63,871 nt of DNA from a virus (Duplodnaviria; Caudoviricetes). The stretch is from positions 1-63,871 of the IMG/VR virus record IMGVR_UViG_3300025012_000086; one strand, given 5' to 3'. Of the stretch, positions 1 through 52,280 are shown one piece after another (within the stretch, counting starts at the first letter, position 1; each line of letters starts with the position of its first letter). The notes under the pieces are model-generated. The model was not told the origin of the DNA. It saw only the letters and a list, made by a program, of their open reading frames with translations, and searched no databases. Made by a program: the position numbers and the translations under genes.

Positions 1-176
1 TGACAGCCAAAGAGGAAGACGTTTCCAGCCAGGTGAAGAGGGAGGAAGCCAGAAAGAAGCTCTTCCCCGAGGAGTGGACCCCGAGGGCTGAGAAAGAACT
101 CCAAGATGCCAAGGCTGCAGCAGCTGCAGTAGCCAGGCCCAAAGTCGTCACCGCCCCAGGGTCGGTTGCTGTCGGC
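1..176 (+). repeat. Flank A, copy 1 (diverged direct repeat of 62940-63115) inside the giant gene
   Basis: Manual codon alignment: 53/58 aa identical, differences mostly synonymous; 35-bp exact run GCTGCAGTAGCCAGGCCCAAAGTCGTCACCGCCCC. Confidence 0.95.
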
Positions 177-16430: not shown

Positions 16431-17321
16431 TTAATATATTTCACCACCCTGGATCTTAAACAACTTGGCATGGAACGTCCCGTTGCGGCCATAGTCAACA
16501 GTGGCAAAACCCTGTGACCAATTGTTGAGTGGGGCGTAGTCCATTGGTCCGCCCAGATATCCGACAGCGCCAACCCATAGCGTTGACCCGTCTATTCGTT
16601 TGAATATTTTTTCCTGCACCCTGTGATGGTGGCCAAAGATGCAATGGTCGAGGACATATTTGAACATGACGTTGGTGACGTAGTCAGCGTTTCCACCAGT
16701 AGGTTTCTCGTGCCCGTGGAGATACCAAAGTTTGCCGATAGAGAAGAAGTCCTTGCGGTATTCGATATCGAGGGCGCTAAGGTCCAGCTTATTGATCAAC
16801 AGATCATCCACTAGGTCTGCTATTTCCACAGCGTTTTCCAGTACGTAGCGCTCAAGGTGGCTCTCGTGGTTACCCTCCTTGAAAATCATCTTAGCCTTCG
16901 GGTGTCGCTTGCGCAGATCGGTTAGGAATTCACGCCCCATTTTCAGCTCGCCCTTGATATCGTGCTTCCCTGTCTTCTTGGTGAATCTTGAGCACTTGTA
17001 AAAGTCCATCATGTCGCCGTCGATAACTATGGTGTCTGGCTTGTACTCATCAGCATAGCCGAGGGCTGCGTCAACAGCTATCTGGTCGTGAAAAGGGATG
17101 TGGATGTCGCAAATCAAAAACACCTTCTGACCAACGAATGAATTATCGTTCTGTACCTTCAGCTGAATTATATCCTTATGCTTCAAACCCCAGTCGTATA
17201 GACGAGCCTGTGCCGTACTACAGCCCATTGTCTCTCGTATCTTGTTGCGGGAAAATATTTCATCCCGCCTTCTGAATTCCCTGTCAAGGGCTATAAGGTG
17301 CTGCCATTGGCCTCTATCCAT
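16431..17321 (-). CDS. Calcineurin-like metallophosphoesterase
   Basis: DIH, GD..D, GNHE, HGH, GHHH motifs. Confidence 0.9.
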   Translation of the reverse strand: MDRGQWQHLIALDREFRRRDEIFSRNKIRETMGCSTAQARLYDWGLKHKDIIQLKVQNDNSFVGQKVFLICDIHIPFHDQIAVDAALGYADEYKPDTIVIDGDMMDFYKCSRFTKKTGKHDIKGELKMGREFLTDLRKRHPKAKMIFKEGNHESHLERYVLENAVEIADLVDDLLINKLDLSALDIEYRKDFFSIGKLWYLHGHEKPTGGNADYVTNVMFKYVLDHCIFGHHHRVQEKIFKRIDGSTLWVGAVGYLGGPMDYAPLNNWSQGFATVDYGRNGTFHAKLFKIQGGEIY

Positions 17322-17847
17322 TTGTCTTCCCCCGAAATTGTTTTATAAACGCTGCAGCGGACGAGTTGTTGTCGTCATACGGGAAACCGAGACACTGCTC
17401 TGCGGCATACCTATGACATACCGCTTCGGCGATGTCGTGGAATCTGCCAAGGAACACCTGCTTGCCATGGATGGCTATTTGCGCCTGCCATCTCCCCCGG
17501 CTTCTGCATATTCCACAGACCCCAGTAGTGTTGTTGCTGTTGAGGCTTCTGTTTCTCTGCTGCTGCTGGTGTGTCACAACCCGCAAATTTTTACGCCAAT
17601 TATGATGCCTAATTCTGTCTTCATGGTCAACGGTGTCACAGTTATCAATATAACCATCGGTATATATTATAGCTAGTCGATGCGCACCATACATATAACC
17701 ATCTATTTTCACAACAACATATCCATCGCTATTAACACAACCTGCGACTTCACCAACGGTAGCGCCGTGAACATACTTTCTCCACGTGAACAAGCCAGTG
17801 TTCATGTCGTAACAAAGTAGCTCCCTCAACCTGTCTTGCGTTATCAT
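17314..17847 (-). CDS. HNH endonuclease with AP2-like domain
   Basis: AHRLA..DHEDR...N...NLR..N.TGV.G. Confidence 0.85.
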   Translation of the reverse strand: MITQDRLRELLCYDMNTGLFTWRKYVHGATVGEVAGCVNSDGYVVVKIDGYMYGAHRLAIIYTDGYIDNCDTVDHEDRIRHHNWRKNLRVVTHQQQQRNRSLNSNNTTGVCGICRSRGRWQAQIAIHGKQVFLGRFHDIAEAVCHRYAAEQCLGFPYDDNNSSAAAFIKQFRGKTNG

Positions 17848-20140: not shown

Positions 20141-20212
20141 AATATACCGGGCAGGAAAGATTGTGTCAAGATAAAAATAACCGTTGACATTTTTTTTTAT
20201 TGGTGGTAAGAT
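20141..20212. promoter_or_regulatory. Divergent sigma70 promoters
   Basis: Leftward TTGACA-17-TATATT (20169-20141); rightward TTGACA-17-TAAGAT (20184-20212). Confidence 0.8.
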
Positions 20213-20244
20213 TCCATCAAATACTTAAGCGATTGGAGATAGAT

Positions 20245-20787
20245 ATGATAGACCATTCTGAATTACGTAAGCTGGTAAAGTATAGTAAAATCACCGGATT
20301 ATTCACGTGGAAAAAAGCCAGGCCTGGTGTCGGCGTCGGCGAGCAATGTGGCCACGTGGACAAGGACGGCTATGTCCGCATACGGCTGGCTGGGCGAAAA
20401 TACTACGCTCAAGTCCTGGCGTGGTTCTACGTTACGGGCGAATGGCCAACTGGCCAAGTCGATCACCGCGACAGGGTGCGGACCAATAACAAATGGAGAA
20501 ACCTACGGGATGTTGAGCCAGTCGTCAACGCCAATAATCGAGGGAAGTTCTCGACCAACACGTCGGGAGTTTCCGGCATTGATCGTTCCAGGGGCAAATG
20601 GAGGGTTCGAATCACGGTCGAGGGGAGGAGGGTTCAAGTCGGGATGTTCAGCAGGTTTGACAAGGCTCGATCAGCTCGACGGGAAGCCTTGTTGTCGGTG
20701 TCGGTCGATCAATCTTCTTTCTCTTCCCCGGCTCAGTCTTTTTCTCTTTCGGCCAGGAAGGAAGTTTCTAATGGCTCAGATGTTTGA
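20245..20787 (+). CDS. HNH endonuclease with AP2-like domain
   Basis: DHRDRVRTNN..NLR; GGAG SD before ATG 20245. Confidence 0.85.
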   Translation: MIDHSELRKLVKYSKITGLFTWKKARPGVGVGEQCGHVDKDGYVRIRLAGRKYYAQVLAWFYVTGEWPTGQVDHRDRVRTNNKWRNLRDVEPVVNANNRGKFSTNTSGVSGIDRSRGKWRVRITVEGRRVQVGMFSRFDKARSARREALLSVSVDQSSFSSPAQSFSLSARKEVSNGSDV

Positions 20788-33235: not shown

Positions 33236-33489
33236 AACCGTTGAATGGTACTAAGTACAGGAAGCTGTCGAAGGTGGCTCAATCAATCCTGGCCGACATT
33301 GCCAGATCACCTATACCATGCTTAGAATTAAATCCAGGAGTGGTGAACAGGCTAGTAGGCGGCGGATACACGAACGTCATGCACTGCCCTTCACCATACA
33401 AATCACATAACGGTGGGACTTGTCCCTTCCTGGTGATAACATCGAAAGGCATGAGAGAGGTACAGCAATGGCAGCTCCGAGAAAGGTAG
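33232..33489 (+). CDS. Hypothetical winged-helix-like protein
   Basis: Coupled ORF, ..IT.KG.. C-terminus. Confidence 0.45.
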   Translation: MKPLNGTKYRKLSKVAQSILADIARSPIPCLELNPGVVNRLVGGGYTNVMHCPSPYKSHNGGTCPFLVITSKGMREVQQWQLRER

Positions 33490-34133
33490 ACTACAAAAGC
33501 ATTGAACCAGACTGGATAGCCGGGATCAAGTCGATACAGGAACTATGTTCAGAGTATGAGGCGCGAACGGGCACCAAGGTAACCAAGGCGTCACTGATCA
33601 AGCACTTCAATAAAGCTCAAATACCTCGCGACGTTAAGGCAAGAATCATCGCTCGCGCAGAGGCCATGGTAACCGAGAGAGAGGCCATGGTAACCATCAA
33701 AGAAGAGCGATTGAATGAGATGGACCGTAAGCAGCGGAACAGAGCTGTTGAGGACGCCACGGTACTGAACATAGCTGACCGGATATCAGCCGAGAGATCC
33801 GATGTAGTCAAGGCCAGGAACATAGTCCAGAAGATGTGGGACAAGGTATCCGCCATGGATGACATGGAAGCCGAGCTGCAGACCCTTGGCGAATACCTTC
33901 GAGATCCGTCTGAGAGCTTCGACAAGCTGAACGACATCTACGCCAAGGTCATATCCTTCCCCGGCCAGGTTGATTCGATCAAGAAATTGGTTGACTCGCT
34001 TCGCAATTTAGTGTTGCTCGAACGTGAGATCTATGGTATAAAGGTAGGTGAAGGCGAGGGCAATAAGCGCCACGAGAGTATCACGATCAGGTGCGTCCCG
34101 GCCCCGAGGCGAGACGAGGAGGATGACGAATGA
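33468..34133 (+). CDS. Terminase small subunit
   Basis: DY..IE.DW.AG..S N-terminal HTH, I.K...K....RD, LL.ER..YG C-terminus. Confidence 0.65.
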   Translation: MAAPRKVDYKSIEPDWIAGIKSIQELCSEYEARTGTKVTKASLIKHFNKAQIPRDVKARIIARAEAMVTEREAMVTIKEERLNEMDRKQRNRAVEDATVLNIADRISAERSDVVKARNIVQKMWDKVSAMDDMEAELQTLGEYLRDPSESFDKLNDIYAKVISFPGQVDSIKKLVDSLRNLVLLEREIYGIKVGEGEGNKRHESITIRCVPAPRRDEEDDE

Positions 34134-34720: not shown

Positions 34721-34908
34721 TGATGGTAATGATGCTCCTACAATGGAGTGACGCCTCGATTATGCCACACAACCGGGCAACCAACAAGCTAGTGAATACC
34801 CTTACCGGCAGGCTGACCTTCGACCAGTGCATCTTCATGGTGGAGCTGATGTGGCCCGACTACGCCAGTGACGTGAAGAGGAAGAGCGGAGGCTCGCTGC
34901 ACCTATAA
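34717..34908 (+). CDS. Hypothetical protein
   Basis: ATGA coupling. Confidence 0.4.
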   Translation: MMMVMMLLQWSDASIMPHNRATNKLVNTLTGRLTFDQCIFMVELMWPDYASDVKRKSGGSLHL

Positions 34909-35106
34909 TCCTGGCTCGAGAAAATCCGGAATGACACTCGCAATGATGCTGTACCAATGGGCCGAATGTGCTGGTTATAACAACTACAATCAGACGACCC
35001 GCTACGTCATGGCCGTGGTGATGACCAGGATGAAACAAGGTGCGTGGCGCAAGGTCCGTTACGAGATAATGAGCGGCTGGAAAAGCGGCGACAACAGGTG
35101 GTAGCT

Positions 35107-35373
35107 ATGAAAACAATGCGTGAGCTGGTAGAAGACAAAGTCATGGAGCTTTTCAGGGAGGGCTACGAAGAGGGCCTGGAGGCCTTCCACGAGCCGGTCA
35201 AGGTGACGGATATAGAGAGACGCATTTTGGCTTATCCGCACCCCAGGGTGATCGTTATCAACCCTGGACACCTTGAAGCGCTCTTCACGATGATCGAGGC
35301 CAGGGTCAAGTGCGCATATGACGCCGAGCTGCTCAAGGTGCTCGACGCCCAACTCTGTCAAGCATACAGGTGA
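35107..35373 (+). CDS. Hypothetical protein
   Basis: Operon-packed ORF. Confidence 0.5.
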   Translation: MKTMRELVEDKVMELFREGYEEGLEAFHEPVKVTDIERRILAYPHPRVIVINPGHLEALFTMIEARVKCAYDAELLKVLDAQLCQAYR

Positions 35374-35376
35374 GCC

Positions 35377-35583
35377 ATGCCGCACGGTAAGAACGTCATA
35401 CACCGCATACACGACGGTATGCAATTCTTCTTCTCCCCCGAGTCTGCACGGTTCGAGTTTGTCGGCTTCTATTTCGACCACGACAACATCTGCAGGCCAA
35501 TCCATGCCCAGTCGATCTACGGCCAGCACATCATGGCGTGGTTGGGCATCGAAACCGATGACAGCGGAATGCCGATAATATGA
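35377..35583 (+). CDS. Hypothetical protein
   Basis: Operon-packed ORF. Confidence 0.45.
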   Translation: MPHGKNVIHRIHDGMQFFFSPESARFEFVGFYFDHDNICRPIHAQSIYGQHIMAWLGIETDDSGMPII

Positions 35584-35954
35584 GAGATCCCATAGACATC
35601 AACAGGGTAATTCACAAGATGTGGCCAGACAAGTACCGGGTGAACGCCAGGATCAGCGTCAAGAGCTACGTTCGCCACATGCCCGACATCGACAAGGAGA
35701 TCCGCGCCATGCTTTCCCACGGCATAGCCGACGCCTTAGTTAATCGCCTGAAGGACGGCGGATTTTTTGAGCGCATTATCCCGGACCATGATAGAGTGAA
35801 TTGCAAATACTGCAGAGAGGAAGAGTATTCGTACGGCCCTCGCGCCGTGGACTGGAGAGACGATATCCTGTACCACGGAGAGGTATACGCGTTCACCAAA
35901 GAGGAGCTGAGAGAATTCCTGGTGGCTGTGTTAGGTGAGGCCCTATCGGAATAA
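35580..35954 (+). CDS. Hypothetical protein
   Basis: ATGA coupling. Confidence 0.55.
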   Translation: MRDPIDINRVIHKMWPDKYRVNARISVKSYVRHMPDIDKEIRAMLSHGIADALVNRLKDGGFFERIIPDHDRVNCKYCREEEYSYGPRAVDWRDDILYHGEVYAFTKEELREFLVAVLGEALSE

Positions 35955-36376
35955 TGGGATTCGTTTACGCTATTCATCATACGCCTACTGGTTCAAGGTA
36001 TATCGGCAGCACGGTAAACTTCGCCAGGCGCACCAAGGACCACGTCAACAGGCTTCGCAGTGAAAGGCATCATTGCGAGGCCCTGCAGTCGTTATGGAAT
36101 TCCTGTGCGCAGTCCGAATTCGAGTGGTATGTTATCGAGGAAACTGATCGGCACGAGGAGCGGGAACAGTTCTGGATAGACTTCTTCGGCGAAACCCTCA
36201 ATACCATTAAGATAGTTGGTGAGGTTCCGACGTGTCGCCGTAGGCCTAAGCCAGCTAAAGCTGAGTCCAGGATTGATCGATGGCGCAAGAAGGAGGCTGA
36301 CAGGCTCGAAAGAGAGGCTATGGCCGAAGTTGAGATGTATGTTAGGTACTTCCCCGATAGGTGCCGAACCAAGTAA
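35954..36376 (+). CDS. GIY-YIG endonuclease
   Basis: GFVYAI....YIGST....R...H..L..HH..LQ..N..REQ.WID..N. Confidence 0.85.
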   Translation: MGFVYAIHHTPTGSRYIGSTVNFARRTKDHVNRLRSERHHCEALQSLWNSCAQSEFEWYVIEETDRHEEREQFWIDFFGETLNTIKIVGEVPTCRRRPKPAKAESRIDRWRKKEADRLEREAMAEVEMYVRYFPDRCRTK

Positions 36377-36427
36377 CTGTTATCCGACAACTATCAAAAG
36401 TTCAACAAACCAGCCAATGGAGCGAGA

Positions 36428-37114
36428 ATGAAACTGAAAAGAAAGGTCAGGCGTCTGGAGCAGGGCATCACCATGCTTCGTGTTGACATGAGCAAGAAGC
36501 TGTCCAGGATCGAAGGTCTGCTCAAGGTCTTCATGAAAGACATCGGAGTGGACGTGCCCACTGATCACGAGGGGGCTTGCGTAGCCGCCTTCAAGAAGAT
36601 GCTGGATCAAATCGAGCCACCCATCATGCTCCCCAAGGCTATGCCCGAAGTGAAAGGCGACACCATCCGCTTCCGCCGCCGTGAGCTGCCTGGCGCTGAC
36701 ATCCTGGTATCCGAAGGCCTGACACCTACTCCCGAGACAATCAAGGACTTTAATGACGACATGCTTTGCCAATGCCCGCAATGTCGTGAGTACCGAGCCA
36801 ATGAACGTGTCAGGGAGCGCTTCGAGGGTATGCTACTTTCGAGCGAGGACGTAGCAGCCAGCCTTATCAACTTCCCGGACGACCCGGTCATGTGGCCCGA
36901 GGACTGCCAAGTGTTTATCGGCATCGACCCAGGCGTTGAAGACTGGAGTGGCATTGCCATGGTCAGGGATAACCCGGATGACGCGATGATCGACGCCATG
37001 ACATTCGGCACCGGCCTTTACAGAAGCTTCGGCCCTATCAAGACCGGAACCTACTTCACCGCATTGGCAACAGAGTCCACGGTCATGAAGGCTCTCAAGG
37101 AGATGAATGAATAA
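36428..37114 (+). CDS. Mosaic protein containing a major-capsid N-terminal fragment
   Basis: Residues ~54-105 align by eye with MCP residues ~17-84 of this phage. Confidence 0.6.
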   Translation: MKLKRKVRRLEQGITMLRVDMSKKLSRIEGLLKVFMKDIGVDVPTDHEGACVAAFKKMLDQIEPPIMLPKAMPEVKGDTIRFRRRELPGADILVSEGLTPTPETIKDFNDDMLCQCPQCREYRANERVRERFEGMLLSSEDVAASLINFPDDPVMWPEDCQVFIGIDPGVEDWSGIAMVRDNPDDAMIDAMTFGTGLYRSFGPIKTGTYFTALATESTVMKALKEMNE

Positions 37115-37547
37115 AGATAACTGGGAACGCAAGCTGGTAAAGTATTGGTCAGGCATGAACTACTCGCTGGTTCAGGTCCAGCCGAGAAAGATCATCGGTG
37201 CCAAGATGAGGGTGTTCGTGCATAACGTGCTTTCAATCCCTGGCCAGAAGAGACTATTAGAGGGCAGATGATCGGCAAAATCCTTCTGTTCACATCGCTG
37301 TGGATAATCATAGGCCTCATCATCTTCCGTGTCTGCAATGACGCCAAGAGGGACGGCTGGTGGCTTCACGACGAAGATCCGGAATGAGCGACATGCATAG
37401 ATGGTCACGACCATGGAAGGCGGCGAGGAGCACAGGGGAATAACCAAGTACCCGTCAATATATAACCGGCTCGATTCGACTGCGACATCCCTCTCGTCGG
37501 GGGTAAATCGCCTCTGCGTTTTTTCTGTGCAACCGATCAATGGTCAT

Positions 37548-37583
37548 GGTACTGTACAATCTAATGATGAATTGTACAGTACC
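37548..37583. repeat. 13-bp perfect inverted repeat (terminator or operator)
   Basis: GGTACTGTACAAT-N10-ATTGTACAGTACC followed by T-rich tract. Confidence 0.7.
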
Positions 37584-37602
37584 TTTTCCTTTTGGAGGAC
37601 CG

Positions 37603-37839
37603 ATGAAAGAGATTATCAAATTTGTTACAGAGGATGGCCAGGAGTTTGTCTCCGAGAACGACGCGCTGAATCACGAGATCAATGTTGACCTCATGATGCT
37701 CATGCCGGATAGCGAGGATTCCAGAGCCATGAACTGGACCAGGTTAGAGATCGCAATGTGGGTCAGGCGTAACATTGCGGCAATTAATGTAGCTATCTCC
37801 ATGGACCGGATCGAGTACCGGATTCCCAGGATCGAATAG
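37603..37839 (+). CDS. Hypothetical protein
   Basis: GGAGG SD; F.TEDG.EF..E..A..HE. Confidence 0.6.
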   Translation: MKEIIKFVTEDGQEFVSENDALNHEINVDLMMLMPDSEDSRAMNWTRLEIAMWVRRNIAAINVAISMDRIEYRIPRIE

Positions 37840-37879
37840 CCGACAAGAAACACCACAAGCAGAGGAGCTTCACGGTAGT

Positions 37880-38089
37880 ATGAAAGTATGCAACGACTTA
37901 CGAGAGCGGCAGTTTACGACCAACAGTACGACAGGCAAGCGCTGCCGCTACATTGATGAGTTTGACGAGCTGGACATAGGCACGGTGTACGACCACGGTG
38001 ATGGCTGGTACATCGTAGAGAAGAAGTATCAGAACGGTGACGAGCTGGTAGACGTCCCGGCTGAAAACGTCAAGGAGGTAGAACGTTGA
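37880..38089 (+). CDS. Hypothetical protein
   Basis: Operon-packed ORF. Confidence 0.5.
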   Translation: MKVCNDLRERQFTTNSTTGKRCRYIDEFDELDIGTVYDHGDGWYIVEKKYQNGDELVDVPAENVKEVER

Positions 38090-38271
38090 CACTGAAACAG
38101 AAGATCTGTGGATTCAAAGGCCATGAGTTTGAGCTATTCGCTGCGCCCACTGCAGCCAAGCGCACTGCACACGTCAGGCTTATCTGCAGCAAATGCGGAT
38201 TCGGCACCGCCTGGTATTCACTGCGCAAGGCCACGAAGACGACTGACCTGCTGCAGGCCAAGGAGGAATGA
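38086..38271 (+). CDS. Small Zn-ribbon protein
   Basis: C...GH..C.KCG. Confidence 0.55.
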   Translation: MTLKQKICGFKGHEFELFAAPTAAKRTAHVRLICSKCGFGTAWYSLRKATKTTDLLQAKEE

Positions 38272-38696
38272 TGGACGGCAATATCTTTCGTGGCCTCTTC
38301 GCGAGACTGGAGGCAAACCGCAAGGCCGCTCTCGACAAGCAGGCCGAGGCCGAGAAGGACAGCAAGGAGCTTCTCGACCTGGAAAAGGCCCAGCACAGCC
38401 AGTTCCGCGCCAGGATGGAAGGCCTGCGCATCAAGTGCGAATTCTTCCGTGAGAAAACACCCCATGGGTCTTTCGAGATACTCATGGGCCGCAAGGTCAT
38501 GGTAGAGAGAATCTACGTTGACCCCGAATTCATGGACGTCGGCGTCTGCTTCGTATTCTGGGACAACACCGGTATCATGAGACGCAACCGCATGTCCATT
38601 GAGAACTTCAGCGCTGGATGTGACCGCAGCAGTCACTGGTCACCAACCCAGCAAATCACCGCCAATCAAGGCCCAATGATCACACCTATCTATTGA
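38268..38696 (+). CDS. Hypothetical protein
   Basis: AGGAGG SD. Confidence 0.55.
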   Translation: MMDGNIFRGLFARLEANRKAALDKQAEAEKDSKELLDLEKAQHSQFRARMEGLRIKCEFFREKTPHGSFEILMGRKVMVERIYVDPEFMDVGVCFVFWDNTGIMRRNRMSIENFSAGCDRSSHWSPTQQITANQGPMITPIY

Positions 38697-38897
38697 GAGG
38701 AGTACCATGAAACTCGAAAGACTGAATCCGATTATCGTTCCCACCAGCCAAAGCTACAACTCGGTCAAAGCCGCCCTCCTTCCCCAGCCAGATTCCGGAG
38801 AAGCGTCCGTCGACAGAACAAATGTGAATGCCCCATAGGTGTTGATGGCAACACCAGAGATCCGGCGAATACCAGGCTCACAACCTGGTAGCCGTTT

Positions 38898-38982: not shown

Positions 38983-40302
38983 ATGATCAAGACGTATTCA
39001 CAAAGAGATCTTGTCCTCGACATACCGGATAAATTCCTCTTCCTGTTCCAGCCAAAAGACTTCAAGGTGGCCAAGGGTGGACGGTCAAGCGCCAAGTCCT
39101 GGAGCTTCGCCCGCGCTCTCGTCGTCATAGGCTACGCCGAAGAGAAGCGTATCCTCTGCACTCGTGAAGTCCAGAACTCCATTGACGAATCGGTATACCA
39201 GCTACTCAAAGACCAGATCCGCCTACTTGGCCTGGACTGGTTCTATACCCCGTTCCGTGACAGGATTGTCGGCCAGAATGGTACGATCTTTGCATTCGAG
39301 GGACTGGCCACTCACACTATCACCTCCCTGAAGTCATACGAGGGATTCGATATCTGCTGGGTAGAGGAGGCTCACGCCGTCAGTAAGCGGTCATGGGACG
39401 TCCTAATCCCGACCATCCGGAAGGAAGGGTCCGAGATCTGGGTCACCTTCAACCCCGAGCTGGAGAGCGACGAGACGTACAAGAGGTTCGTTACCGAAGC
39501 TACGCCTGACCGGTATTATGTGGTTCATGTCACCTGGCGGGATAATCCCTTCCTCACCGCAAAATCGAATGCAGATCGCCTGGAGTGCAAGCTCAAGCGC
39601 CCAGACGACTACGACAACATCTGGGAAGGCCGCTGCAGGCCTGCCGTGGCTGGAGCCATCTACTACAAGCAGATGGACGAAATGCTGCGACAAGGCCGCA
39701 TATGCAACGTTCCTTACGACCCCTTCCTGAAGGTACACGTCATATCCGACATCGGCCTGAACGACACCACAGCGCTTATCATGGCACAGCGCCGCGCCTC
39801 CGAGATCAGGATTATCGATTACATAGAGGACAACCGTAGGACGTGGGACTCGTACTCAATCGAGCTGAAAGAGCGCAAGTACAACTGGGGTAGGCTCTGG
39901 CTCCCACATGATGGCTTCGCCGCCGATATGAAGAGCAACGGCAAGTCGTCCGCAGACATCCTTCGCAAACTTGGCTGGGACGTGCCAGACCGGGAGGAGA
40001 TCGTAGAGCGTTCTATCGAGGAGGGCATTAAGGTCGCTCGCATGACCATGCCCAGGATCTACGTCGATGTGAAGAAGGCCGCACGGCTCATCGAATGCCT
40101 CAAGCGGTACAGGCGGCACGTCTCGAAACAGACCCTCGCCGAGACAGGCCCGGTCCACGACGAATTCAGCAACGGTGCCGACTCCTTCCGCTACCTCTGT
40201 CTCAACATCGAGAAGATGACCAATGAGGAACGCCGTGGCATGCGCATGCCGAACAGGTTTACTCGCTACGGTCAGCCGCTGGATGACGGCGTCGGTTATT
40301 AG
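38983..40302 (+). CDS. terL: Terminase large subunit (PBSX/SPP1-like)
   Basis: GGRSSAKS Walker A, WVEEA Walker B, FNP, DIG..D, SNGADSFRY. Confidence 0.95.
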   Translation: MIKTYSQRDLVLDIPDKFLFLFQPKDFKVAKGGRSSAKSWSFARALVVIGYAEEKRILCTREVQNSIDESVYQLLKDQIRLLGLDWFYTPFRDRIVGQNGTIFAFEGLATHTITSLKSYEGFDICWVEEAHAVSKRSWDVLIPTIRKEGSEIWVTFNPELESDETYKRFVTEATPDRYYVVHVTWRDNPFLTAKSNADRLECKLKRPDDYDNIWEGRCRPAVAGAIYYKQMDEMLRQGRICNVPYDPFLKVHVISDIGLNDTTALIMAQRRASEIRIIDYIEDNRRTWDSYSIELKERKYNWGRLWLPHDGFAADMKSNGKSSADILRKLGWDVPDREEIVERSIEEGIKVARMTMPRIYVDVKKAARLIECLKRYRRHVSKQTLAETGPVHDEFSNGADSFRYLCLNIEKMTNEERRGMRMPNRFTRYGQPLDDGVGY

Positions 40303-40309
40303 GAACTAT

Positions 40310-40840
40310 ATGAAAATATTGGATAAATTTAAAGAAGTACTTATCTATAACGAAACTACCGGGGTTTTCACGTGGAGAGTAACCACAAGCTCCAGGGCAT
40401 TGGCAGGAAGCGCGGCTGGATGTGTCAGCAGTAGTGACGGCTATATCTACATCCAGTACGCCGGAGATAAGGTCCAGGCCCACAGGTTGGCTTGGTATTT
40501 TATCCACGGCTATGACTCGGAATTTGAGATCGACCACCGCGATAGGGTGAGGACGAATAATGCACCAGACAATTTGCGTGAGGCGTCGAGGCAATGCCAG
40601 TCCCGAAATTGCGGTATGCTGTCAAACAATACGTCAGGAATTAAGGGCGTATCGTGGTACAAGCAAACCAACAGGTGGCAGGTCCACATAAAAGTCAACG
40701 GTAAACAAATTCGCCTGGCCTATGTCAAGAACCTACTCGATGCAGCTTACCTTCGCTACGCTGCCGAGCAATGTCTTGGGTTCGCTGATTGCGACACCAT
40801 GTCCAGCGCGAAGGCCTATATCGACTCCCACAAATACTGA
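40310..40840 (+). CDS. HNH endonuclease with AP2-like domain
   Basis: AHRLAW..DHRDRVRTNN..NLR..NNTSG.KGV. Confidence 0.88.
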   Translation: MKILDKFKEVLIYNETTGVFTWRVTTSSRALAGSAAGCVSSSDGYIYIQYAGDKVQAHRLAWYFIHGYDSEFEIDHRDRVRTNNAPDNLREASRQCQSRNCGMLSNNTSGIKGVSWYKQTNRWQVHIKVNGKQIRLAYVKNLLDAAYLRYAAEQCLGFADCDTMSSAKAYIDSHKY

Positions 40841-41014: not shown

Positions 41015-43531
41015 ATGACACCGGAAGATAACGAGCGGAAAAAAGTTATAAGAGAGATGCAGCGCGAAGCCGAAGGGCTGCTTGCTCAATCCGGTCTGCA
41101 TGAGATGCCAGACGGAACCCTCATGAACAATGAGGAGATGGCCGTTGATTCCAGTAGCCAGTACGAGCCGCAACAGGAGCACGGGCCGTCAGACAATCCC
41201 ATGGAACCTGACATAGAGGACGATGAGGCCAGCGAGGCCCAGCAAGAGGCCATCATGGCCATTGCCCATTCGATTCTGAAGACCAGGGAAGAGGCCATCC
41301 AGTACCGCTCAAACTCCGGTATCGAGCGCTGGTGGAGGATCAGTGAGCAGATGCTCGACTACTCCCAGGATCTGGAAATGGCACCGGCAATGATCGACTA
41401 TGCTGCAGGCACCGCCCCCGTCCCGAACACCGGGGTCCGCCGCTCAAGAGTCGTTATGAATTTGGTAAGGGGCCGATGCGAGGTTTCACTCGGTCGCTTC
41501 GAAGATATCCTTCTTCCGGTTAGGGATCGGAACTGGGGATTCAAGATTACGCCGAACCCCGAGGTCATGAAGATGGTTGGGGATCTGCGCATGGCTACGT
41601 CAGGCGGTGCCCCCGTCATGATGTCGAACGGCGCACAGGCTAATATGGACCAGGTCGCAAAGGCGATCAAGGCCAAGGCCGAGAAGGCTATGGTGGGTAT
41701 GGAGAAGGTTGTCCACGACGCCCTGACCGAGTGCAGCTTCAACAGCGAAGAGCGTAAGGTTATGGAGAACGCCGTCAACCTTGGCACCGGCATCCTCAAA
41801 GGACCGTGCATCTCCCGCAAGCTCAAGAAGGTATGGAAGCGTCAGCAGTCCGCCAACCCGGTGGAAGGTGGACCTCCTGTGTGGGTTAGGAACCTGGAGT
41901 ACAAGGAAGACAATAAGCCGATATCGGTATCCGTTTCGCCATGGAATGTGTATCCTTCTGCGGACTGCAAGGGTGAGCCGAGCAAGGGCAGCTACGTCTG
42001 GGAGAAGGACACGATCCGCCCCAGGGATGTTCAGCGCCTCATAGGTTTACCAGGCTACAGCACCAAACAGCTTGAAGCAGTGCTCGAAGAGGAGCCGAAA
42101 CGGATCATGGTCACCTACGACCAGCACGGCAACTACATGAAGATCCAGGAGGAGAATGCAAACCTGGGTGAGGTTTATGACCTCTGGGAGTACAACGGAG
42201 AGGTCAGGCGCGAGTACATGGAGCTGTTGGGCTGCACATGTCCCATCGGTAGACCCGTATCAGCCAGGATAGTATTTATCAACGACCGCCCAGTAAAGGC
42301 CACGCTGAACCTGCTCGACACTGGCGATCTTCCCTACGACTTCTTCACCTGGACCAATATCTCTGATGTCCCGTGGGGAGCTGGCGAGCCGATCAAGATC
42401 ATGTGGGCACAGCGTATCATCAATGCCGTATGGCGGCAGATGTGCGACAATGCCGGTGACTCTGCGGGCGCGAATATCGCGATCATGGGCCTTGAGCCTG
42501 ACGATGGCGTCTGGGAAATCAGCGGCAAGAAGTTGTGGAGATGGGACGGCGAGACGGACCTTGACGATATCCGCAAAGCCATTACCCAGGTCCAGGTAGA
42601 GAACAATCAAGCCCCCCTTCAAGCCATGCTTGAGCTGGCCCTGAAATTCATCGACTTGATGACGGCCACTCCAACCATATTCCAGGGTGAGGCCAAAGAG
42701 GCACCCGACACTCTCGGTGCCACTAATATCGTGGTTGACTCCTCGAACGTCACCTTCCGCTCCAAAGTGAAGCGATGGGATGACCAGGTAACCACTCCGC
42801 ACCTTCGGAGATGGTACGATTTCGAGATGCAGTACCATGAGGACGATTCGATCAAGGAAGACCTCGACGTTGATCCACGTGGCGCTTCGGTCCTGTACGA
42901 GAAAGACCAGATGCGTCAGCAGATCCTCCAGATCTTCCAGCTGAAAGCAGACCCTGACATCAACAGGAAGACCGACTGGGACAAGGCTATCGAGCTGTTC
43001 TACTCAGCCAGCCACCTGGACATTATCAAGGATCAACCGGCAGAGGGTGAGCAGCAGCCACAAGGACCGCCGAGTCCTGACCAGATCCAGCTACAGGTTG
43101 CGCAGGTACGGGCCGACAGCCTTATGCAGGTAGCCATGCTTAAGCAGCAGCAAGCCGAGGCAGAGATGGCCTTCAAGTCCACTGAGGCCGACAAAGAGCG
43201 ACAGCATGAAGCGGCTATGAAGCAAGCCGACCTCCAGATCAAGATGATGGAGTACGCCGAGAAGCGGAATATCAACCTCGACAATCTCAGGGTCCAACTG
43301 GCTCTTGGCGGCGAGGGGATGAACATGCAGTGGAAACTGGCCAACCAGGGCCGACAGGATTCCATACAGGAGCGACAGGAAGGCCGACAGGATTCGAAAG
43401 AAGAGCGAGCTGAAGAGATGAACGAGCGTAGGGTAGAGCGATCAGAAAATCGTGTCGCCACCCCGCAAGTCGCCACCCCTCCGACCGAACCTCCAGGCAG
43501 GGCACCCGTAGGTGAGGCCTACCCGAGATGA
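41015..43531 (+). CDS. Portal protein
   Basis: 838 aa after TerL; LGTG..K, VSPWN.YP, WG.G, TLGA; Q-rich helical barrel tail as in P22-like portals. Confidence 0.85.
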   Translation: MTPEDNERKKVIREMQREAEGLLAQSGLHEMPDGTLMNNEEMAVDSSSQYEPQQEHGPSDNPMEPDIEDDEASEAQQEAIMAIAHSILKTREEAIQYRSNSGIERWWRISEQMLDYSQDLEMAPAMIDYAAGTAPVPNTGVRRSRVVMNLVRGRCEVSLGRFEDILLPVRDRNWGFKITPNPEVMKMVGDLRMATSGGAPVMMSNGAQANMDQVAKAIKAKAEKAMVGMEKVVHDALTECSFNSEERKVMENAVNLGTGILKGPCISRKLKKVWKRQQSANPVEGGPPVWVRNLEYKEDNKPISVSVSPWNVYPSADCKGEPSKGSYVWEKDTIRPRDVQRLIGLPGYSTKQLEAVLEEEPKRIMVTYDQHGNYMKIQEENANLGEVYDLWEYNGEVRREYMELLGCTCPIGRPVSARIVFINDRPVKATLNLLDTGDLPYDFFTWTNISDVPWGAGEPIKIMWAQRIINAVWRQMCDNAGDSAGANIAIMGLEPDDGVWEISGKKLWRWDGETDLDDIRKAITQVQVENNQAPLQAMLELALKFIDLMTATPTIFQGEAKEAPDTLGATNIVVDSSNVTFRSKVKRWDDQVTTPHLRRWYDFEMQYHEDDSIKEDLDVDPRGASVLYEKDQMRQQILQIFQLKADPDINRKTDWDKAIELFYSASHLDIIKDQPAEGEQQPQGPPSPDQIQLQVAQVRADSLMQVAMLKQQQAEAEMAFKSTEADKERQHEAAMKQADLQIKMMEYAEKRNINLDNLRVQLALGGEGMNMQWKLANQGRQDSIQERQEGRQDSKEERAEEMNERRVERSENRVATPQVATPPTEPPGRAPVGEAYPR

Positions 43532-43817: not shown

Positions 43818-44723
43818 ATGTTCGAGGAAGAAACCGTAGTACCGCAAATGTCGCAAGAAGAGATCGACCTCCGGAATGAACTGAATAAGGAAGTTTTCGA
43901 AGGGGCCGAAGGTATTGAAGCGCTGCCGCCTGCACAAGCCGCCAGTGAGGAAGATGCCGCTGCCCTCGAAGCCGCCAAGAAAGCAGAGCAGGAGAAAGAG
44001 GTTGACCCATGGGAGGGTGTTGCACCAGTCCTTCGTCAGGCGATTGAGAGTATCCAGTCGAGACTTGGCGGATTTGACGCTTTCGGCGAACGGTTGAAAC
44101 AGGCCGAGAATCGGGTTGGTGGAATTGATAACAGGCTTCGGGATATGAAGGCCGCATTCCCGGCTGCAAAGCAACCAACCAGACAAGATGTAGAAGCCGC
44201 CCTGGCGAGCAATGCTGGATTCAAGGTATTCAGCGAAGACTTTCCTGATCACGCAAACGCCTTCAAAGAGATCCTGATCGCCACCTCATCCGGTGCCGGT
44301 CCCGCTGGGATGTCGATGGAGGATGTTCAGAAAATGCGCGATGAGATGAACACCAACTTCGAGGAACGCCTGAATAAACAGCAGCTCGGATTCGAGCTAA
44401 AGCTTCTCCGTAGCAAGTACAAGAACCATGTCGCACTGATCAAGGAGCCGACCTTCGAGCCGTGGCTACAGACTCAGTCTCCCGAGATGAAGGCGAAATT
44501 TGGTTCATTTGATGCCCTGGATGGTATCGACCTCCTTGACGAGTACACAGCGTATAAGGCGAAAGCCGCAGCGCTGCCGAATACCGCGAAGGAGCGACAA
44601 GATAGGCTGGCATTAGCCGCCGAAAATAAACGTACCACCACGGCAGTGAAACAAAAATCCGAGGCTGACATGACCGAGGCAGAATACCGCGATCATGTAT
44701 CCAAACAAATTTGGGGGAAATAA
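43818..44723 (+). CDS. Capsid scaffolding protein
   Basis: Acidic, helical, immediately upstream of MCP. Confidence 0.7.
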   Translation: MFEEETVVPQMSQEEIDLRNELNKEVFEGAEGIEALPPAQAASEEDAAALEAAKKAEQEKEVDPWEGVAPVLRQAIESIQSRLGGFDAFGERLKQAENRVGGIDNRLRDMKAAFPAAKQPTRQDVEAALASNAGFKVFSEDFPDHANAFKEILIATSSGAGPAGMSMEDVQKMRDEMNTNFEERLNKQQLGFELKLLRSKYKNHVALIKEPTFEPWLQTQSPEMKAKFGSFDALDGIDLLDEYTAYKAKAAALPNTAKERQDRLALAAENKRTTTAVKQKSEADMTEAEYRDHVSKQIWGK

Positions 44724-44726
44724 GCA

Positions 44727-45758
44727 ATGGCCACTCAAACCTATTCTCTTGTTCCGGGCAGGAACCTGATTCGAGCAGAACTCGAAATGCTGAAGTATGC
44801 CGAACCCTACTTTGTGTTGGGATCTTTCGGTATGCAGAAAGAAATGCCGCTCAACAAAACGGAGACGCTGGTCTTCCGTCGAGTTGACCCGTACAATATG
44901 GCCGCAAACGGAATCGCCAATATCACCGCCACCGACTTCCTGTTGGCAGAGGGTGCTATCCCGACTCCTTCGACCATTAGCTACACCGACGTTTCCGTCA
45001 CCCTGAAGCAGTACGCCGTCCTCTTCAAACTGACCTCCAAGGCCGCTTTGATGTACGAGGATGACATCCCGAACGACATGAAAATGCTCACCGGGAAGAC
45101 CATGGGTGAGGTTGCCGAACTCGTCGCATTTGGCGAATTCAAGGCAGGAACGACCGTCGTGTATGCGAACGGGGCCAGCCGTGGAGCTGTTAACACCGCG
45201 ATCTCCATCAGCAAACTCCGGTCCATTACCCGTACCCTGGAGAACAACCTGGGTGCGAAAGTGACGACTTCCATCAAACCGGGTCCGAACTTCGGTACGA
45301 CCGGTGTCGCCCCCTGCTTCGTCGTCTTCTGTCATACCGACTGCGCCGCTGACGTCCGGGATCTCCCGAACTTCACCGACCGCATCAAGTACGGCACCGC
45401 GATCAAGCCGGTACACGACAGGGAATTCGGTGCATGCGAGGAATTCCGGTTCGTAAGCTCGGCCCTGCTCCGTCCTTTCCTGGCCGCTGGATCTGCCACC
45501 CTTAACGGGATGAAGAACAGCTCCGCAGCCGTTGACGTCTACCCTTGGCTCGTTATCGCCGAGGAGGCATGGGGCCACGTATCCCTCAAGGGTCATGGCA
45601 AGACTTCCATCTCTCCGACCTATCTGCCGCCCAGCCAGAAGAGTCATGCAAACCCCAGCGGAACCTTCGGGTACGTTGGTGCTGACTTCTGGTATGCGCC
45701 GGTACGGGCAAACGAGAACTGGTTCGTCCGCTTCGAGTCTGGCGTAACTGACCTGTAA
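44727..45758 (+). CDS. Major capsid protein (N4-gp56 family)
   Basis: MP.N...T..FRR, L.EG..P, V.L.QY, E.G..E..RFV, DVYP. Confidence 0.9.
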   Translation: MATQTYSLVPGRNLIRAELEMLKYAEPYFVLGSFGMQKEMPLNKTETLVFRRVDPYNMAANGIANITATDFLLAEGAIPTPSTISYTDVSVTLKQYAVLFKLTSKAALMYEDDIPNDMKMLTGKTMGEVAELVAFGEFKAGTTVVYANGASRGAVNTAISISKLRSITRTLENNLGAKVTTSIKPGPNFGTTGVAPCFVVFCHTDCAADVRDLPNFTDRIKYGTAIKPVHDREFGACEEFRFVSSALLRPFLAAGSATLNGMKNSSAAVDVYPWLVIAEEAWGHVSLKGHGKTSISPTYLPPSQKSHANPSGTFGYVGADFWYAPVRANENWFVRFESGVTDL

Positions 45759-45812
45759 GATCTGACCGCGTAACTGACCAAGCTCTGACCAAGTTTTGAC
45801 GAGCTTGGTCAG
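45742..45812. repeat. CTGACC direct/inverted repeat cluster at MCP end
   Basis: GCGTAACTGACC x2, CTGACCAAG x2, inverted GAGCTTGGTCAG. Confidence 0.6.
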
Positions 45813-45846
45813 TAGCGGATACAAACCCTTTGAGAGGTAAACGAAA

Positions 45847-47148
45847 ATGGCTGAGAGTATCAAAAAAAGAGCGTCGAGCCTGGCAAACATCGCCGACGCC
45901 TTTCATATCAGAAAAATCTGGGAGTCGATCAAGACCGAGCTGGACGCCCTGCGAACCGTAGCTAACGAACTTCGCACCGACCACGCCACGTTCAAGACCG
46001 CTGCAGATGGGGTTGAAACCCTTATTGAGGAGCTGCATGACGACCATGCTACCGCCGTGACCTGGATGACTGAGGTTGACGCGGATAGTGACGTCATGGG
46101 CAATATCGTCTCGTTCAACATGGCTGACGGTGTCATCGGTGGCGACTTCACTATCGCTGGAACCGCAGCAGTAACCCTGCTCGGTGCCGGTCACATCCGC
46201 TATCGTATCGGCGGGCAGGAATACTACGCAAACCTGGACACCACGATCACCTTGCAAGACTCGGGCGATATCGTGCAGAACAAGTACGGCGCATGGAGAA
46301 TTCTGATCGACCGAGCCGGGGTTGTCACCACCCAGGATACTGGCGCTCAGATGGCTTTCGATAACGCAGAGGACGCATTGCTGTGTCTGTCCGCAGTAGC
46401 GCCGACCGCCAATACCGCAATCATTGGATACTTCACGGTAACCGACGCCGGGGCTGGTGGTTTCAATATCGGCACCACGAACACTACTGGCGGCACCGCC
46501 ACCGAAGTGGTGTATACCGTACGGAATGCCCCCAAGAAGGCCACTGGTTTGACCGTAGCGAACGGCGCAGCCACTGCCGTAGGTACTACCCCGGAACGGT
46601 ATGCAACTGGCACCAAGGACGTCATGCTGAACGGTGTGAGGATTTCCCAAATCGCAGCAGAGGCCGACAAAGTATTCGATGACGCAGACACCATCGGTCA
46701 GGCACAATTCGGCGGATGGCTTATCGTTACGAACCTGGCCCAGAACGCAACCTACGCCCTGGCCTCAAACGGCATCGCCGGAACCGTAAGCGCAATGACT
46801 CACGCCAGCGCCGCAGCAGCGGACACAGCCCTTGGTCTTGTGGCTGATCGCCTCCCGCCCATGTTCTGTCCCATCGCAAAGCTGGTGGTAGAGAACCTGA
46901 AGGGCGGTGGCTGGGCTGCGAATACCGATGACCTCGACGGGGTTGACGGCAACGCTACCTTCACCGACGCAACCGTAGGCACCTGGAGTAGAACCGCCCT
47001 TACCGGCTTTGACTCCCACAAAATCACCCCGGATTCCATCCCGGCAAACATTACCGCACCGTTGGTTGCTGGCCTCACGGCACCGAAACCGGCATCGGCA
47101 CCTGCGACTCTTTCCGCCGCAGCAACAACTGAAGTCCTGACTTCATAA
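45847..47148 (+). CDS. Capsid decoration/head fibre-like protein
   Basis: A/G/T-rich, directly after MCP. Confidence 0.55.
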   Translation: MAESIKKRASSLANIADAFHIRKIWESIKTELDALRTVANELRTDHATFKTAADGVETLIEELHDDHATAVTWMTEVDADSDVMGNIVSFNMADGVIGGDFTIAGTAAVTLLGAGHIRYRIGGQEYYANLDTTITLQDSGDIVQNKYGAWRILIDRAGVVTTQDTGAQMAFDNAEDALLCLSAVAPTANTAIIGYFTVTDAGAGGFNIGTTNTTGGTATEVVYTVRNAPKKATGLTVANGAATAVGTTPERYATGTKDVMLNGVRISQIAAEADKVFDDADTIGQAQFGGWLIVTNLAQNATYALASNGIAGTVSAMTHASAAAADTALGLVADRLPPMFCPIAKLVVENLKGGGWAANTDDLDGVDGNATFTDATVGTWSRTALTGFDSHKITPDSIPANITAPLVAGLTAPKPASAPATLSAAATTEVLTS

Positions 47149-50948: not shown

Positions 50949-52280
50949 ATGCCGAATGAATATTACGACAGCACTGGGGCGCCAGCGAATAACTCGCTCG
51001 GCAATCCGGCATTGATAAGAGCTGAATTCGACGCCATCGAAACCGGCTTCGCCAAATTGCCACCGCTCGCCACTCACGCCAATGAAGCGGTGTTCGTTAA
51101 TGCCGGTGCCACTGCCCTTGAATCACTCACTGCAGCCAACGCCAGAACTAGGCTGGGTGCCGAGGCTTCCGCTAATAAGGATGCCAGCGGCGGATTTGTG
51201 GGCCTCACTTTGTTGAAAATCAATTTCAAGAACGTACTCGACACATTCACGTCATTCCTGACAAACTCTAATACAGCGTCAAGAACATACACTTTCCCGG
51301 ACAGCGACGGAACGATAGCGCTAACCACCGACATGCCGCTGAATGGGAGAAAGAATTGGATTATCAACGGAGACTTCAGGTTATGGAGGAGGAATACTTC
51401 CCATACGGTAACCGGTTACGGATCTGACGACAGGTGGTATGTAGGCAGTAATGGGACAACGTTCACCAATAGTAGGCAGGAGTTCTCCCTAGGGCAAACA
51501 GACGTGCCGGATCAGCCAAGATATTACTGTAGGCTGGTTACCGTGTCTGCGGCTGGCGCTGCTAATTATTGCAACAAGGAACAGCGCATAGAAGGAGTCC
51601 ACGTGTTGGCTGGGACCAGCGTAACCCTGTCATTCTACGCCAAGTCCAGCGTCGCCTCCAATATATCCGTTGAATTTGTACAGAATTTCGGTACTGGGGG
51701 TGCTCCGTCAGCTACGGTCACCGGGATAGAGGTAAACAAGATCGCTATCACAACCAACTGGGCGCAGTATACAGTAACCGCCTCGATACCGAGTATTGCC
51801 GGAAAGACACTGGGAACGGACGATAATGATTACATGGCAGTAATATTCTGGGTTGATGCTGGGGCTGATTTCAACGCAAGAACCGACACTCTCGGTCAGT
51901 CTAGTAATACCTATGAATTCTCTCATGTCCAGCTTGAGATTGGCTCATCATCCACCGAGTTCGAAAGAAGAATGGTTGGTGAGGAACTGGAATTGTGCCA
52001 GAGATATTTTCTCGGAAATTCATATGCTTCAGACACTCCAAGATTAGCATTTTCCGGAGACGTTACAACGGCTATAGACTATATAGCTAAGGGGAATTTC
52101 CCGGTAGCGATGAGGATAGCCCCAACAGTTACGCTTACACATAGCGCCAGCAGTAGGTTTGATGCAGTCGCTGGCACTGCGGTAGTTACATCTGTGTCGG
52201 TGGAGGAAACCAGGACCAGCACCAGTACCGGGTCTGCTGGATATTTCGTTAGCACGTATACAGCAGACGCGGAGTTGTGA
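50949..52280 (+). CDS. Tail fibre protein 1
   Basis: N-terminal RAEFD.IE.GF.KLP anchor; N.IING.F..W; QLE.G...FE.R..EL..CQRY. Confidence 0.75.
   Translation: MPNEYYDSTGAPANNSLGNPALIRAEFDAIETGFAKLPPLATHANEAVFVNAGATALESLTAANARTRLGAEASANKDASGGFVGLTLLKINFKNVLDTFTSFLTNSNTASRTYTFPDSDGTIALTTDMPLNGRKNWIINGDFRLWRRNTSHTVTGYGSDDRWYVGSNGTTFTNSRQEFSLGQTDVPDQPRYYCRLVTVSAAGAANYCNKEQRIEGVHVLAGTSVTLSFYAKSSVASNISVEFVQNFGTGGAPSATVTGIEVNKIAITTNWAQYTVTASIPSIAGKTLGTDDNDYMAVIFWVDAGADFNARTDTLGQSSNTYEFSHVQLEIGSSSTEFERRMVGEELELCQRYFLGNSYASDTPRLAFSGDVTTAIDYIAKGNFPVAMRIAPTVTLTHSASSRFDAVAGTAVVTSVSVEETRTSTSTGSAGYFVSTYTADAEL
51261..51314 (+). repeat. 54-bp exact repeat, copy 1
   Basis: Identical to 52596-52649. Confidence 0.95.

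Follow-up and report, generated by a model that had tools for sequence, protein, structure and literature searches.

ORF228, found in groundwater metagenomes in a phage whose capsid is of the N4-gp56 type, encodes a mosaic of a basic helix, a module very probably derived from the major capsid protein (MCP), a cysteine cluster and an acidic beta-rich module. Comparisons at the sequence level strongly support descent of the MCP-like module, about 55 residues long (residues 51-106), from the N-arm helix and E-loop of the N4-gp56 capsid family, and we tentatively propose that ORF228 mimics the contact arms of the MCP toward the capsid lattice, which would entail binding to the MCP and an effect on assembly. 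The analysis was performed on a stretch of 63,871 nucleotides (IMG/VR record IMGVR_UViG_3300025012_000086), referred to here as the window, in which ORF228, its parts and the MCP gene are located as follows.

36419..36422, + strand: Shine-Dalgarno-like GGAG, read in the sequence, 5 nt before the ORF228 ATG
36428..37114, + strand: ORF228 in the ORF listing, ATG start, 228 aa, pI 5.0
36431..36541, + strand: long basic helix at the N-terminus, residues 2-38, probably a coiled coil
36578..36745, + strand: module very probably homologous to the MCP N-arm helix and E-loop (residues 51-106)
36767..36784, + strand: cysteine cluster C114, C116 and C119, invariant in both alleles
36863..37081, + strand: acidic beta-rich C-terminal module (residues 146-218), which holds the 'terminase-like' and 'portal-like' motifs
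36905-36907, + strand: fourth conserved cysteine, C160, invariant in both alleles
44727..45758, + strand: MCP gene, N4-gp56 family (TIGR04387 197.8 bits; phrog_1357 5.3e-35)
44766-44981, + strand: MCP segment apparently copied in ORF228 (MCP residues 14-85)

The open reading frame was found where the original prediction had placed it (36428..37114, +, 228 aa), and the peptides quoted from it (36587-36631, 36911-36934 and 36983-37015), the quoted MCP motifs (44775-44978) and the 'portal' motif (41759-41791) were likewise in place. The 3' end of ORF228 is overlapped by 8 nt by the next small ORF. A second intact allele, P0002 (267 aa, 63% identical to ORF228), is carried by the contig L001. Comparison of the two alleles gave a dN/dS of 0.25 (dS 0.66, dN 0.17), and each of the three indels that separate them (18, 13 and 9 codons) preserves the reading frame. 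Given the GGAG before the start codon, the second intact allele, the dN/dS value and the in-frame indels, ORF228 is a real gene under purifying selection. The same two intact alleles, dN/dS and indels disfavour the suggestion that ORF228 might be recombination debris kept in frame, and P0002 is an intact homologue under purifying selection of the kind for which a search had been recommended.

In the databases searched, the ORF228 family consists of two alleles. IMG/VR contained two identical copies of ORF228 and the L001 contig, a word-indexed search of 5.8 billion clusters returned ORF228 itself and P0002, and the profile version of this search (E<=10) returned the same two among 4,962 candidates. 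An exhaustive phmmer search of 1.84 billion representatives returned ORF228 itself and P0003, a protein to which we return below, and tblastn against 50,697 phage records identified no further members. Sequence searches of Pfam and PDB with ORF228 gave nothing meaningful, PHROGs gave nothing below E 0.05, and a language-model search (Atlas) with the whole protein gave no usable match. In PADLOC-DB (anti-phage defence), LmuB was the only match to ORF228 (E 0.035, 10.4 bits) and P0002 had none.

ORF228 residues 51-106 match residues 14-85 of the phage's own MCP, to which the module is 33% identical. BLASTP aligned ORF228 57-106 with MCP 20-85 (31.6 bits, E 1e-5; 22 identities over 66 columns, 16 gap columns), and the Smith-Waterman score of the pair corresponded to a Gumbel p of 1.6e-5. 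Because the pair had been picked out from a scan of the whole window, all 320 window ORFs of at least 60 aa were compared with one another: the ORF228/MCP pair ranked 8th, the seven pairs above it were true paralogues or their antisense frames, and it was the best non-paralogue pair, the next chance pair reaching 26.6 bits. The alignment of P0002 with the MCP kept this register (30.8 bits, E 2e-5). The tip of the E-loop is shortened in ORF228, and P0002 has an 18-residue insertion at exactly that gap which brings further matches to the MCP, such as the family-invariant P55.

Profile methods gave the same pairing. In hhalign, a profile of the two alleles matched an alignment of 32 MCPs with a probability of 90.3% (E 1.5e-6) and an MCP alignment of 10 sequences, made independently, with 84.5% (E 7e-6). 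In a calibration with 20 families from the phage's packaging/structural module, the MCP scored 45.0, TerL 24.0 and an 838-aa ORF 21.4, and the remaining 17 families scored between 11.4 and 18.2. Among 120 MCP homologues, 118 were matched by ORF228 at E<=10, 117 of them in the same register, and some of these homologues (best 37.7 bits, up to 41% identity) outscored the phage's own MCP. When 11,106 stop-to-stop frames from 82 related loci were searched with the ORF228 profile, the first non-self matches were MCPs (E 7.6e-4 to 3.5e-3); when 11,426 frames were searched with an MCP N-terminal profile, the best non-MCP matches were the two ORF228 alleles (E 0.0018 and 0.09; noise began at 0.37). 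TIGR04387, the N4-gp56 MCP family, was alone among 18,950 NCBIfam models in matching ORF228 at E<=1 (E 0.0014, residues 70-110, 18 bits and thus far short of the 60-bit cut-off), and it was also the top NCBIfam match of P0002 (E 0.078, 12.2 bits). Identities were found on 9 of the 11 aligned columns that are invariant in the MCP family and on 13 of the 39 other columns (Fisher p 0.0055); the N-arm/E-loop signature residues kept in ORF228 are L22, P41, T47, F50, R52, E75, G76, P79 and I84. Between the alleles, w of the MCP-like part is 0.22-0.24. The similarity to the MCP asserted in the original prediction therefore holds (BLASTP E 1e-5, hhalign 84-90%, same pairing in the reciprocal searches), and the homology, whose statistics are good but not overwhelming, is very probably genuine.

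It is accordingly improbable that ORF228 is a plain ORFan with a coincidental likeness to the MCP, even though several results would suit such a reading. The alignment is short, with its 22 identities and 16 gap columns, and was singled out by a reader who had scanned the whole window; one of 2000 shuffles of ORF228 equalled its Smith-Waterman score. Moreover, tblastn of ORF228 against the six-frame window did not list the MCP match at E<=10, the NCBIfam match stayed at 18 bits against a 60-bit cut-off, and with a full-length MCP HMM ORF228 reached 6.2 bits, a score exceeded by one of 10,000 shuffles, P0002 ranking first with 13.9 bits. What argues against coincidence is that independent routes agree on one register, that the extra residues of P0002 add matches including the invariant P55, and that the identities cluster on the family's invariant positions (p 0.0055).

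The phage's MCP (343 aa) has 1,399 homologues at E<=1e-10, and its Foldseek matches are N4-type and N4-like capsids (B2, Moo19, N4 and DEV; E 1e-18 to 3e-13). In its AF2 model (pLDDT 70.4), a helix at 12-28 comes first, then a loop of low confidence flanked by strands 49-54 and 85-90, then a spine helix (116-138); as modelled, helix 12-28 corresponds to the N-arm helix and the strand-flanked loop to the E-loop. According to the parts of the structural reports on N4 and DEV considered here, the N-arm (residues 1-46) extends to adjacent MCPs and the E-loop touches the P-domain of an adjacent MCP (PMC11768535, PMC11445570). The hhalign match covers MCP 14-87 only, with no alignment past MCP residue ~95, and none of the 122 residues that follow the module in ORF228 align to the MCP. 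ORF228 thus stays under the 60-bit cut-off for TIGR04387 and does not contain the complete HK97 fold (P domain, spine helix, A domain); as it has neither P nor A domain, it cannot be a shell subunit.

Outside the MCP-like module, the N-terminal helix segment is the most constrained part between the alleles (w 0.13). Residues 1-45 contain 12 K+R and 5 D+E (pI 10.7), and helix 2-38 alone reached a pLDDT of 50-69 in the AF2 model of ORF228. The hydrophobic heptad spacing that we read in its sequence suggests a coiled coil, and the helix is probably oligomerising. The conserved cysteines may form a metal site, which we infer from the sequence. For the protein as a whole, the AF2 monomer model built from the two-allele alignment had an unusable fold (pLDDT 34.7, pTM 0.20), and a complex prediction of the MCP with ORF228 residues 40-130 returned a score of 0.00 that carries no weight for or against binding.

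The C-terminal third is acidic (pI 4.1), and its module is 92.7% identical in nucleotides between the alleles (alignment columns 176-230). In the original prediction, ORF228 was stitched from pieces of three virion proteins; this patchwork is not borne out, since the MCP-like piece alone is real, the portal piece being noise and the terminase piece non-significant. When ORF228 was compared with the 838-aa ORF by BLASTP, the quoted portal motif pair was not among the alignments, of which the best had E 0.88; the best hhalign match between the two (E 0.073) lies elsewhere in both proteins. The 838-aa ORF itself matched no portal family and nothing in the PDB and is a putative portal from its position only. 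For the likeness to the terminase nuclease, BLASTP against TerL gave at best 16.5 bits (E 0.73) and hhalign a probability of 0.6-2.6% (E 0.017-0.098) over at most ~40 residues, and no terminase was matched in Pfam, PHROGs or NCBIfam.

The terminase likeness is a weak, non-significant lead, which we keep because of where the alignments start, what they pair and which cluster a language-model search returned. The best BLASTP and hhalign alignments both begin precisely where the nuclease domain begins and pair D, G and D of ORF228 with the invariant TerL columns D256, G258 and D261, TerL was second among the 20 families in hhalign (score 24.0, E 0.017), and a language-model search with residues 136-228 placed a Terminase_3C cluster at rank 10 (score 0.92; 137 of 256 features in common). 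Residues 146-187 might then come from the first strands of the RNase H-like nuclease domain of TerL, an add-on compatible with the other readings of ORF228 that would make it a two-piece patchwork of late genes. We consider this quite unlikely: apart from the low hhalign probability (0.6-2.6%) and the missing Pfam, PHROGs and NCBIfam terminase matches, chance alone would yield an E of 0.017 in roughly one of every three series of 20 comparisons, the language-model score lies in a range reached by 4-10 of 100 shuffled proteins and the feature overlap is low, and a propeller-like repeat in P0003 fits the same residues no worse (69%, 30.7).

P0003 is a metagenomic protein of 752 aa that contains about six repeats of 46 aa, weakly Kelch-like (Pfam Kelch_6 E 0.011; PDB KLHL20 E ~0.1). 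ORF228 residues 163-208 align to one repeat unit (hhalign 69%, score 30.7), and the phmmer E of 2.6e-4 (1.84 billion proteins) is inflated by the six near-identical repeats. With an HMM of the P0003 repeat, ORF228 scored above all 10,000 shuffles and P0002 did not exceed the best shuffles listed. Beta-propellers need several blades; ORF228 has one repeat-like unit only and matched no Pfam repeat family at E<=10. Membership in the Kelch/Asp-box beta-propellers was rejected, as there is a single unit and no family profile match. The TerL and P0003-repeat readings of these residues are mutually exclusive, and neither is established.

ORF228 lies on the same strand as terS and terL and between them, with a GIY-YIG gene directly upstream, in the following neighbourhood.

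33420-34133: terS
34801..37576: variable cassette of ~10 small ORFs including ORF228, 2.78 kb, between terS and terL
35954..36376, + strand: free-standing GIY-YIG homing endonuclease (PHROGs 3.8e-12; TIGR01453 E 6.5e-13)
38983-40302: terL, with an HNH endonuclease gene next
Downstream of terL and the HNH gene: the 838-aa ORF, then a 301-aa ORF (putative scaffold), then the MCP gene

The small same-strand ORFs near ORF228 gave no PHROGs match below E 0.005. Between 33 and 41 kb, neither promoters (9 vs 6.4±2.5 in shuffles) nor terminators (7 vs 6.5±2.7) were found in excess. Comparison with related contigs revealed that the cassette is variable. In L001, the flanking terL-portal DNA is 98.5% identical to the window and an island at ~34.7-38.8 kb is 83-88% identical; the GIY-YIG gene is missing there, and the 60-aa ORF in its place is unrelated to GIY-YIG. 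The sibling L005, from a contig of 60.7 kb, joins window position 34801 to 37577, so that 2,776 bp including ORF228 are gone. This joint was present in contigs of three of four runs, alongside contigs of the full form, and its sides are short (22-29 nt). L005, which does not carry ORF228, and L006, which does, encode identical MCPs that differ from the window MCP at 2 of 343 residues. Since the same MCP occurs with and without ORF228, nothing about the capsid requires ORF228, and since the cassette is absent or replaced among siblings, ORF228 is an accessory protein and not a shell subunit. ORF228 is therefore a dispensable accessory gene.

For such an accessory protein, we put forward a role at the capsid lattice. 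The N-arm and E-loop of the MCP are extended elements that grip neighbouring MCPs, and because these arms exist to do so, we propose that the copied module may dock on MCP subunits, capsomers or procapsids. The position of ORF228 between terS and terL, on their strand, agrees with such a role, and a precedent is SaPIbov5 Ccm, an MCP homologue of accessory type by which capsid assembly is redirected (PMC8569155). Such docking, possibly on the MCP of the same phage or on that of a related co-infecting phage, is in our estimate the most likely activity of ORF228, a tentative assignment made from sequence. ORF228 could then act as a dispensable, decoration-like factor associated with the capsid or as a factor that modulates assembly. 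Both the decoy and the dominant-negative factor envisaged in the original prediction would fit the accessory context with its presence/absence polymorphism.

Several observations were also made that speak against a capsid role. Identity of the module to the phage's own MCP is no more than 33%, the tip of its E-loop is deleted, and a competitor for MCP contacts could poison the assembly of the phage's own capsids. A protein difference of 37% between the alleles, next to terL-portal flanks with 98.5% identity, is not as expected from tight co-adaptation to an unchanged MCP. The MCPs of L005 and L006, without and with ORF228, are identical.

Among the other explanations that start from a genuine MCP-like module, one holds that recombination, illegitimate or associated with an endonuclease, brought a 5' fragment of an MCP gene into the accessory island, where it would now be a plain structural segment in a protein with a function unrelated to the capsid. 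The island is indeed a recombination hot spot with a GIY-YIG gene directly upstream, identity breaks sharply from 98.5% to 83-88% and the 2,776-bp deletion joint is clean, and the MCP-like part has 73% nucleotide identity between the alleles against 89-93% in the N-terminal helix and the C-terminal module. We nevertheless regard this exaptation as somewhat unlikely, given that purifying selection acts on the MCP-like segment too (w 0.22-0.24) and that 9 of the 11 aligned invariant MCP columns are kept, which suggests that the ancestral local structure or its contacts are still used.

The remaining alternative is an immune decoy, in which the copy of the E-loop and N-arm would occupy a host sensor of newly made, unassembled MCP without activating it. 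In agreement with this, near-identical phages either have the island, have a diverged copy in its place or have lost it, and full and deleted forms co-occur in the same runs, a pattern of presence, replacement and deletion that is typical of counter-defence genes. A precedent for a sensor requiring the E-loop is provided by staphylococcal Thoeris, for which, in the portion of the report drawn on here, binding of ThsB1 to the MCP needs an intact E-loop (W84K escapes) and recruitment of ThsB2 relies on the distant P-loop of the MCP (PMC12578639), so that a protein with the E-loop only could bind without activating. MCPs are also known triggers of CapRel, Lit (via the Gol peptide), PifA and Pycsar, as described in part of a further report (PMC9712102). 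On the other side, the same part of that report models CapRel SJ46 to recognise the P-domain rather than the E-loop (PMC9712102), and no decoy mimicking an MCP was found in a limited literature search, in the parts of the sources that it covered. Surface mimicry would be poor at 33% identity to the MCP and with the tip of the loop deleted, and the residues kept belong to columns that are invariant in the MCP family and probably structural. Moreover, the MCP family is the sole family of known function that was matched (Pfam, PHROGs, NCBIfam, PADLOC), and the phage is known from groundwater metagenome sequence alone. We thus view an immune decoy as unlikely, and doubt still more that the E-loop/N-arm copy would act as a trigger mimic that saturates an MCP sensor while offering no second, activating surface.

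The N-arm and E-loop tie the lattice together, and the E-loop is also required by at least one immune sensor, Thoeris ThsB1, according to the part of the Thoeris work cited above. If the module binds the MCP, as we prefer, it would offer a small natural tool with which to probe lattice contacts of the HK97 type and interference between phages; should it bind a sensor instead, it would stand as the first capsid-trigger mimic. A decoy of this kind would amount to counter-defence by mimicry of a capsid 'PAMP', which we did not find described. Siblings with ORF228, without it and with a diverged allele, all with the same MCP, constitute a ready natural comparison.

Capsid-related accessory proteins are known as full-length homologues, for instance vertex paralogues and the satellite protein Ccm. 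ORF228 resembles the N4-gp56 MCP family (TIGR04387 / PF25209) in the N-arm helix and E-loop, with 9 of 11 invariant columns kept, but the MCP has 343 aa with P domain, spine helix and A domain, which the 228-aa ORF228 does not have, and ORF228 possesses in addition the basic helix, the cysteine cluster and an unrelated C-terminal module. With P0003 it shares the likeness of one repeat unit, single in ORF228 and present in about six copies in P0003. As far as the excerpted report describes it, SaPIbov5 Ccm is a satellite-borne homologue of the MCP that is built into capsids and redirects the assembly of helper capsids (PMC8569155). Like Ccm, ORF228 would be an accessory homologue of an HK97-fold MCP; unlike Ccm, which acts on assembly, ORF228 is known from sequence alone, appears to keep the contact arms only and is borne by a phage rather than a satellite. 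In the E-loop that Thoeris ThsB1 requires (PMC12578639) and in the T4 gp23 Gol peptide that acts on Lit (PMC9712102), a short exposed part of the unassembled MCP is sensed, again on the basis of partial sources; these elements are parts of a real MCP acting as triggers, whereas ORF228 is a separate gene, and the portions of the Thoeris and Lit literature examined describe no separate phage gene that encodes the sensed part of an MCP. N4 gp17, as presented in the section of the report used here, is an Ig-like decoration protein whose interface includes the E-loop and which is dispensable for capsid formation (PMC11768535); ORF228 is dispensable as well, but Pfam detects no such domain in it and it is known from sequence and not from virions. 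No free-standing N-arm/E-loop gene was found described within the partial sources of our limited literature search. Judged by its sequence, ORF228 would therefore belong with the MCP-derived accessory proteins, and its reduction to the contact arms appears to be what is new about it.

The entire terS-terL island behaves as an exchangeable haplotype block. Compared with L001, a sibling-phage contig, the window at 34729-38777 showed 83-88% identity inside the island and 98.5% in the flanks, with a sharp break, and two sub-segments (34927-35107 and 38135-38606) were replaced outright. Immediately 5' of terL, moreover, a segment of approximately 900 bp was absent from the window and present in four sibling contigs (L003, L001, L005 and L006), the sibling comparison placing the site of the missing segment as follows:

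38769-38838 of the window, against L003:4178-5077, missing-segment site

In the siblings this segment codes for ORFs of 158, 55 and 138 aa, of which, on a by-eye reading of the sequence, the latter two had a membrane-anchored appearance; the 43-aa ORF of the window (38707-38838) is a remnant of the 158-aa ORF.

Four genes of the window belong to homing endonuclease families:

17314-17847, minus strand, HNH endonuclease paralogue
20200-20787, plus strand, HNH endonuclease paralogue
35954-36376, plus strand, GIY-YIG gene
40223-40840, plus strand, HNH endonuclease paralogue

Pairwise identity among the three HNH paralogues was 31-43%, and three HNH genes plus one GIY-YIG gene are a heavy homing-endonuclease load for a phage of approximately 64 kb.

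In an all-vs-all comparison of the window ORFs, the top-scoring paralogue pair (48% identity across 397 columns) was a tandem pair in the structural module:

50949-52280, tandem paralogue, 443 aa
52284-53618, tandem paralogue, 444 aa

[quoted passage not shown]

44613-45890, minus strand, antisense ORF, 425 aa

This ORF exceeds the MCP in length, and length-based gene calling was misled by it; ORF228, the accessory gene with an MCP-like module, is likewise overlain by long antisense ORFs. Antisense ORFs of this kind, the 425-aa one included, are probably a codon-usage artefact.

The window ends overlap imperfectly, 63646-63871 matching 1295-1520 (95.6%) and 62940-63115 matching 1-176 (84.7%), and each carries a giant ORF:

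3-8537, giant ORF, 5' end open, 2,844 aa
61100-63871, giant ORF, 3' end open, 924 aa

The assembly thus looks circular or concatemeric, closed within one giant gene across strain variation. In PHROGs the giant ORFs matched families of DarB-like antirestriction proteins, of endolysin-type proteins and of minor head proteins, and not an RNA polymerase.
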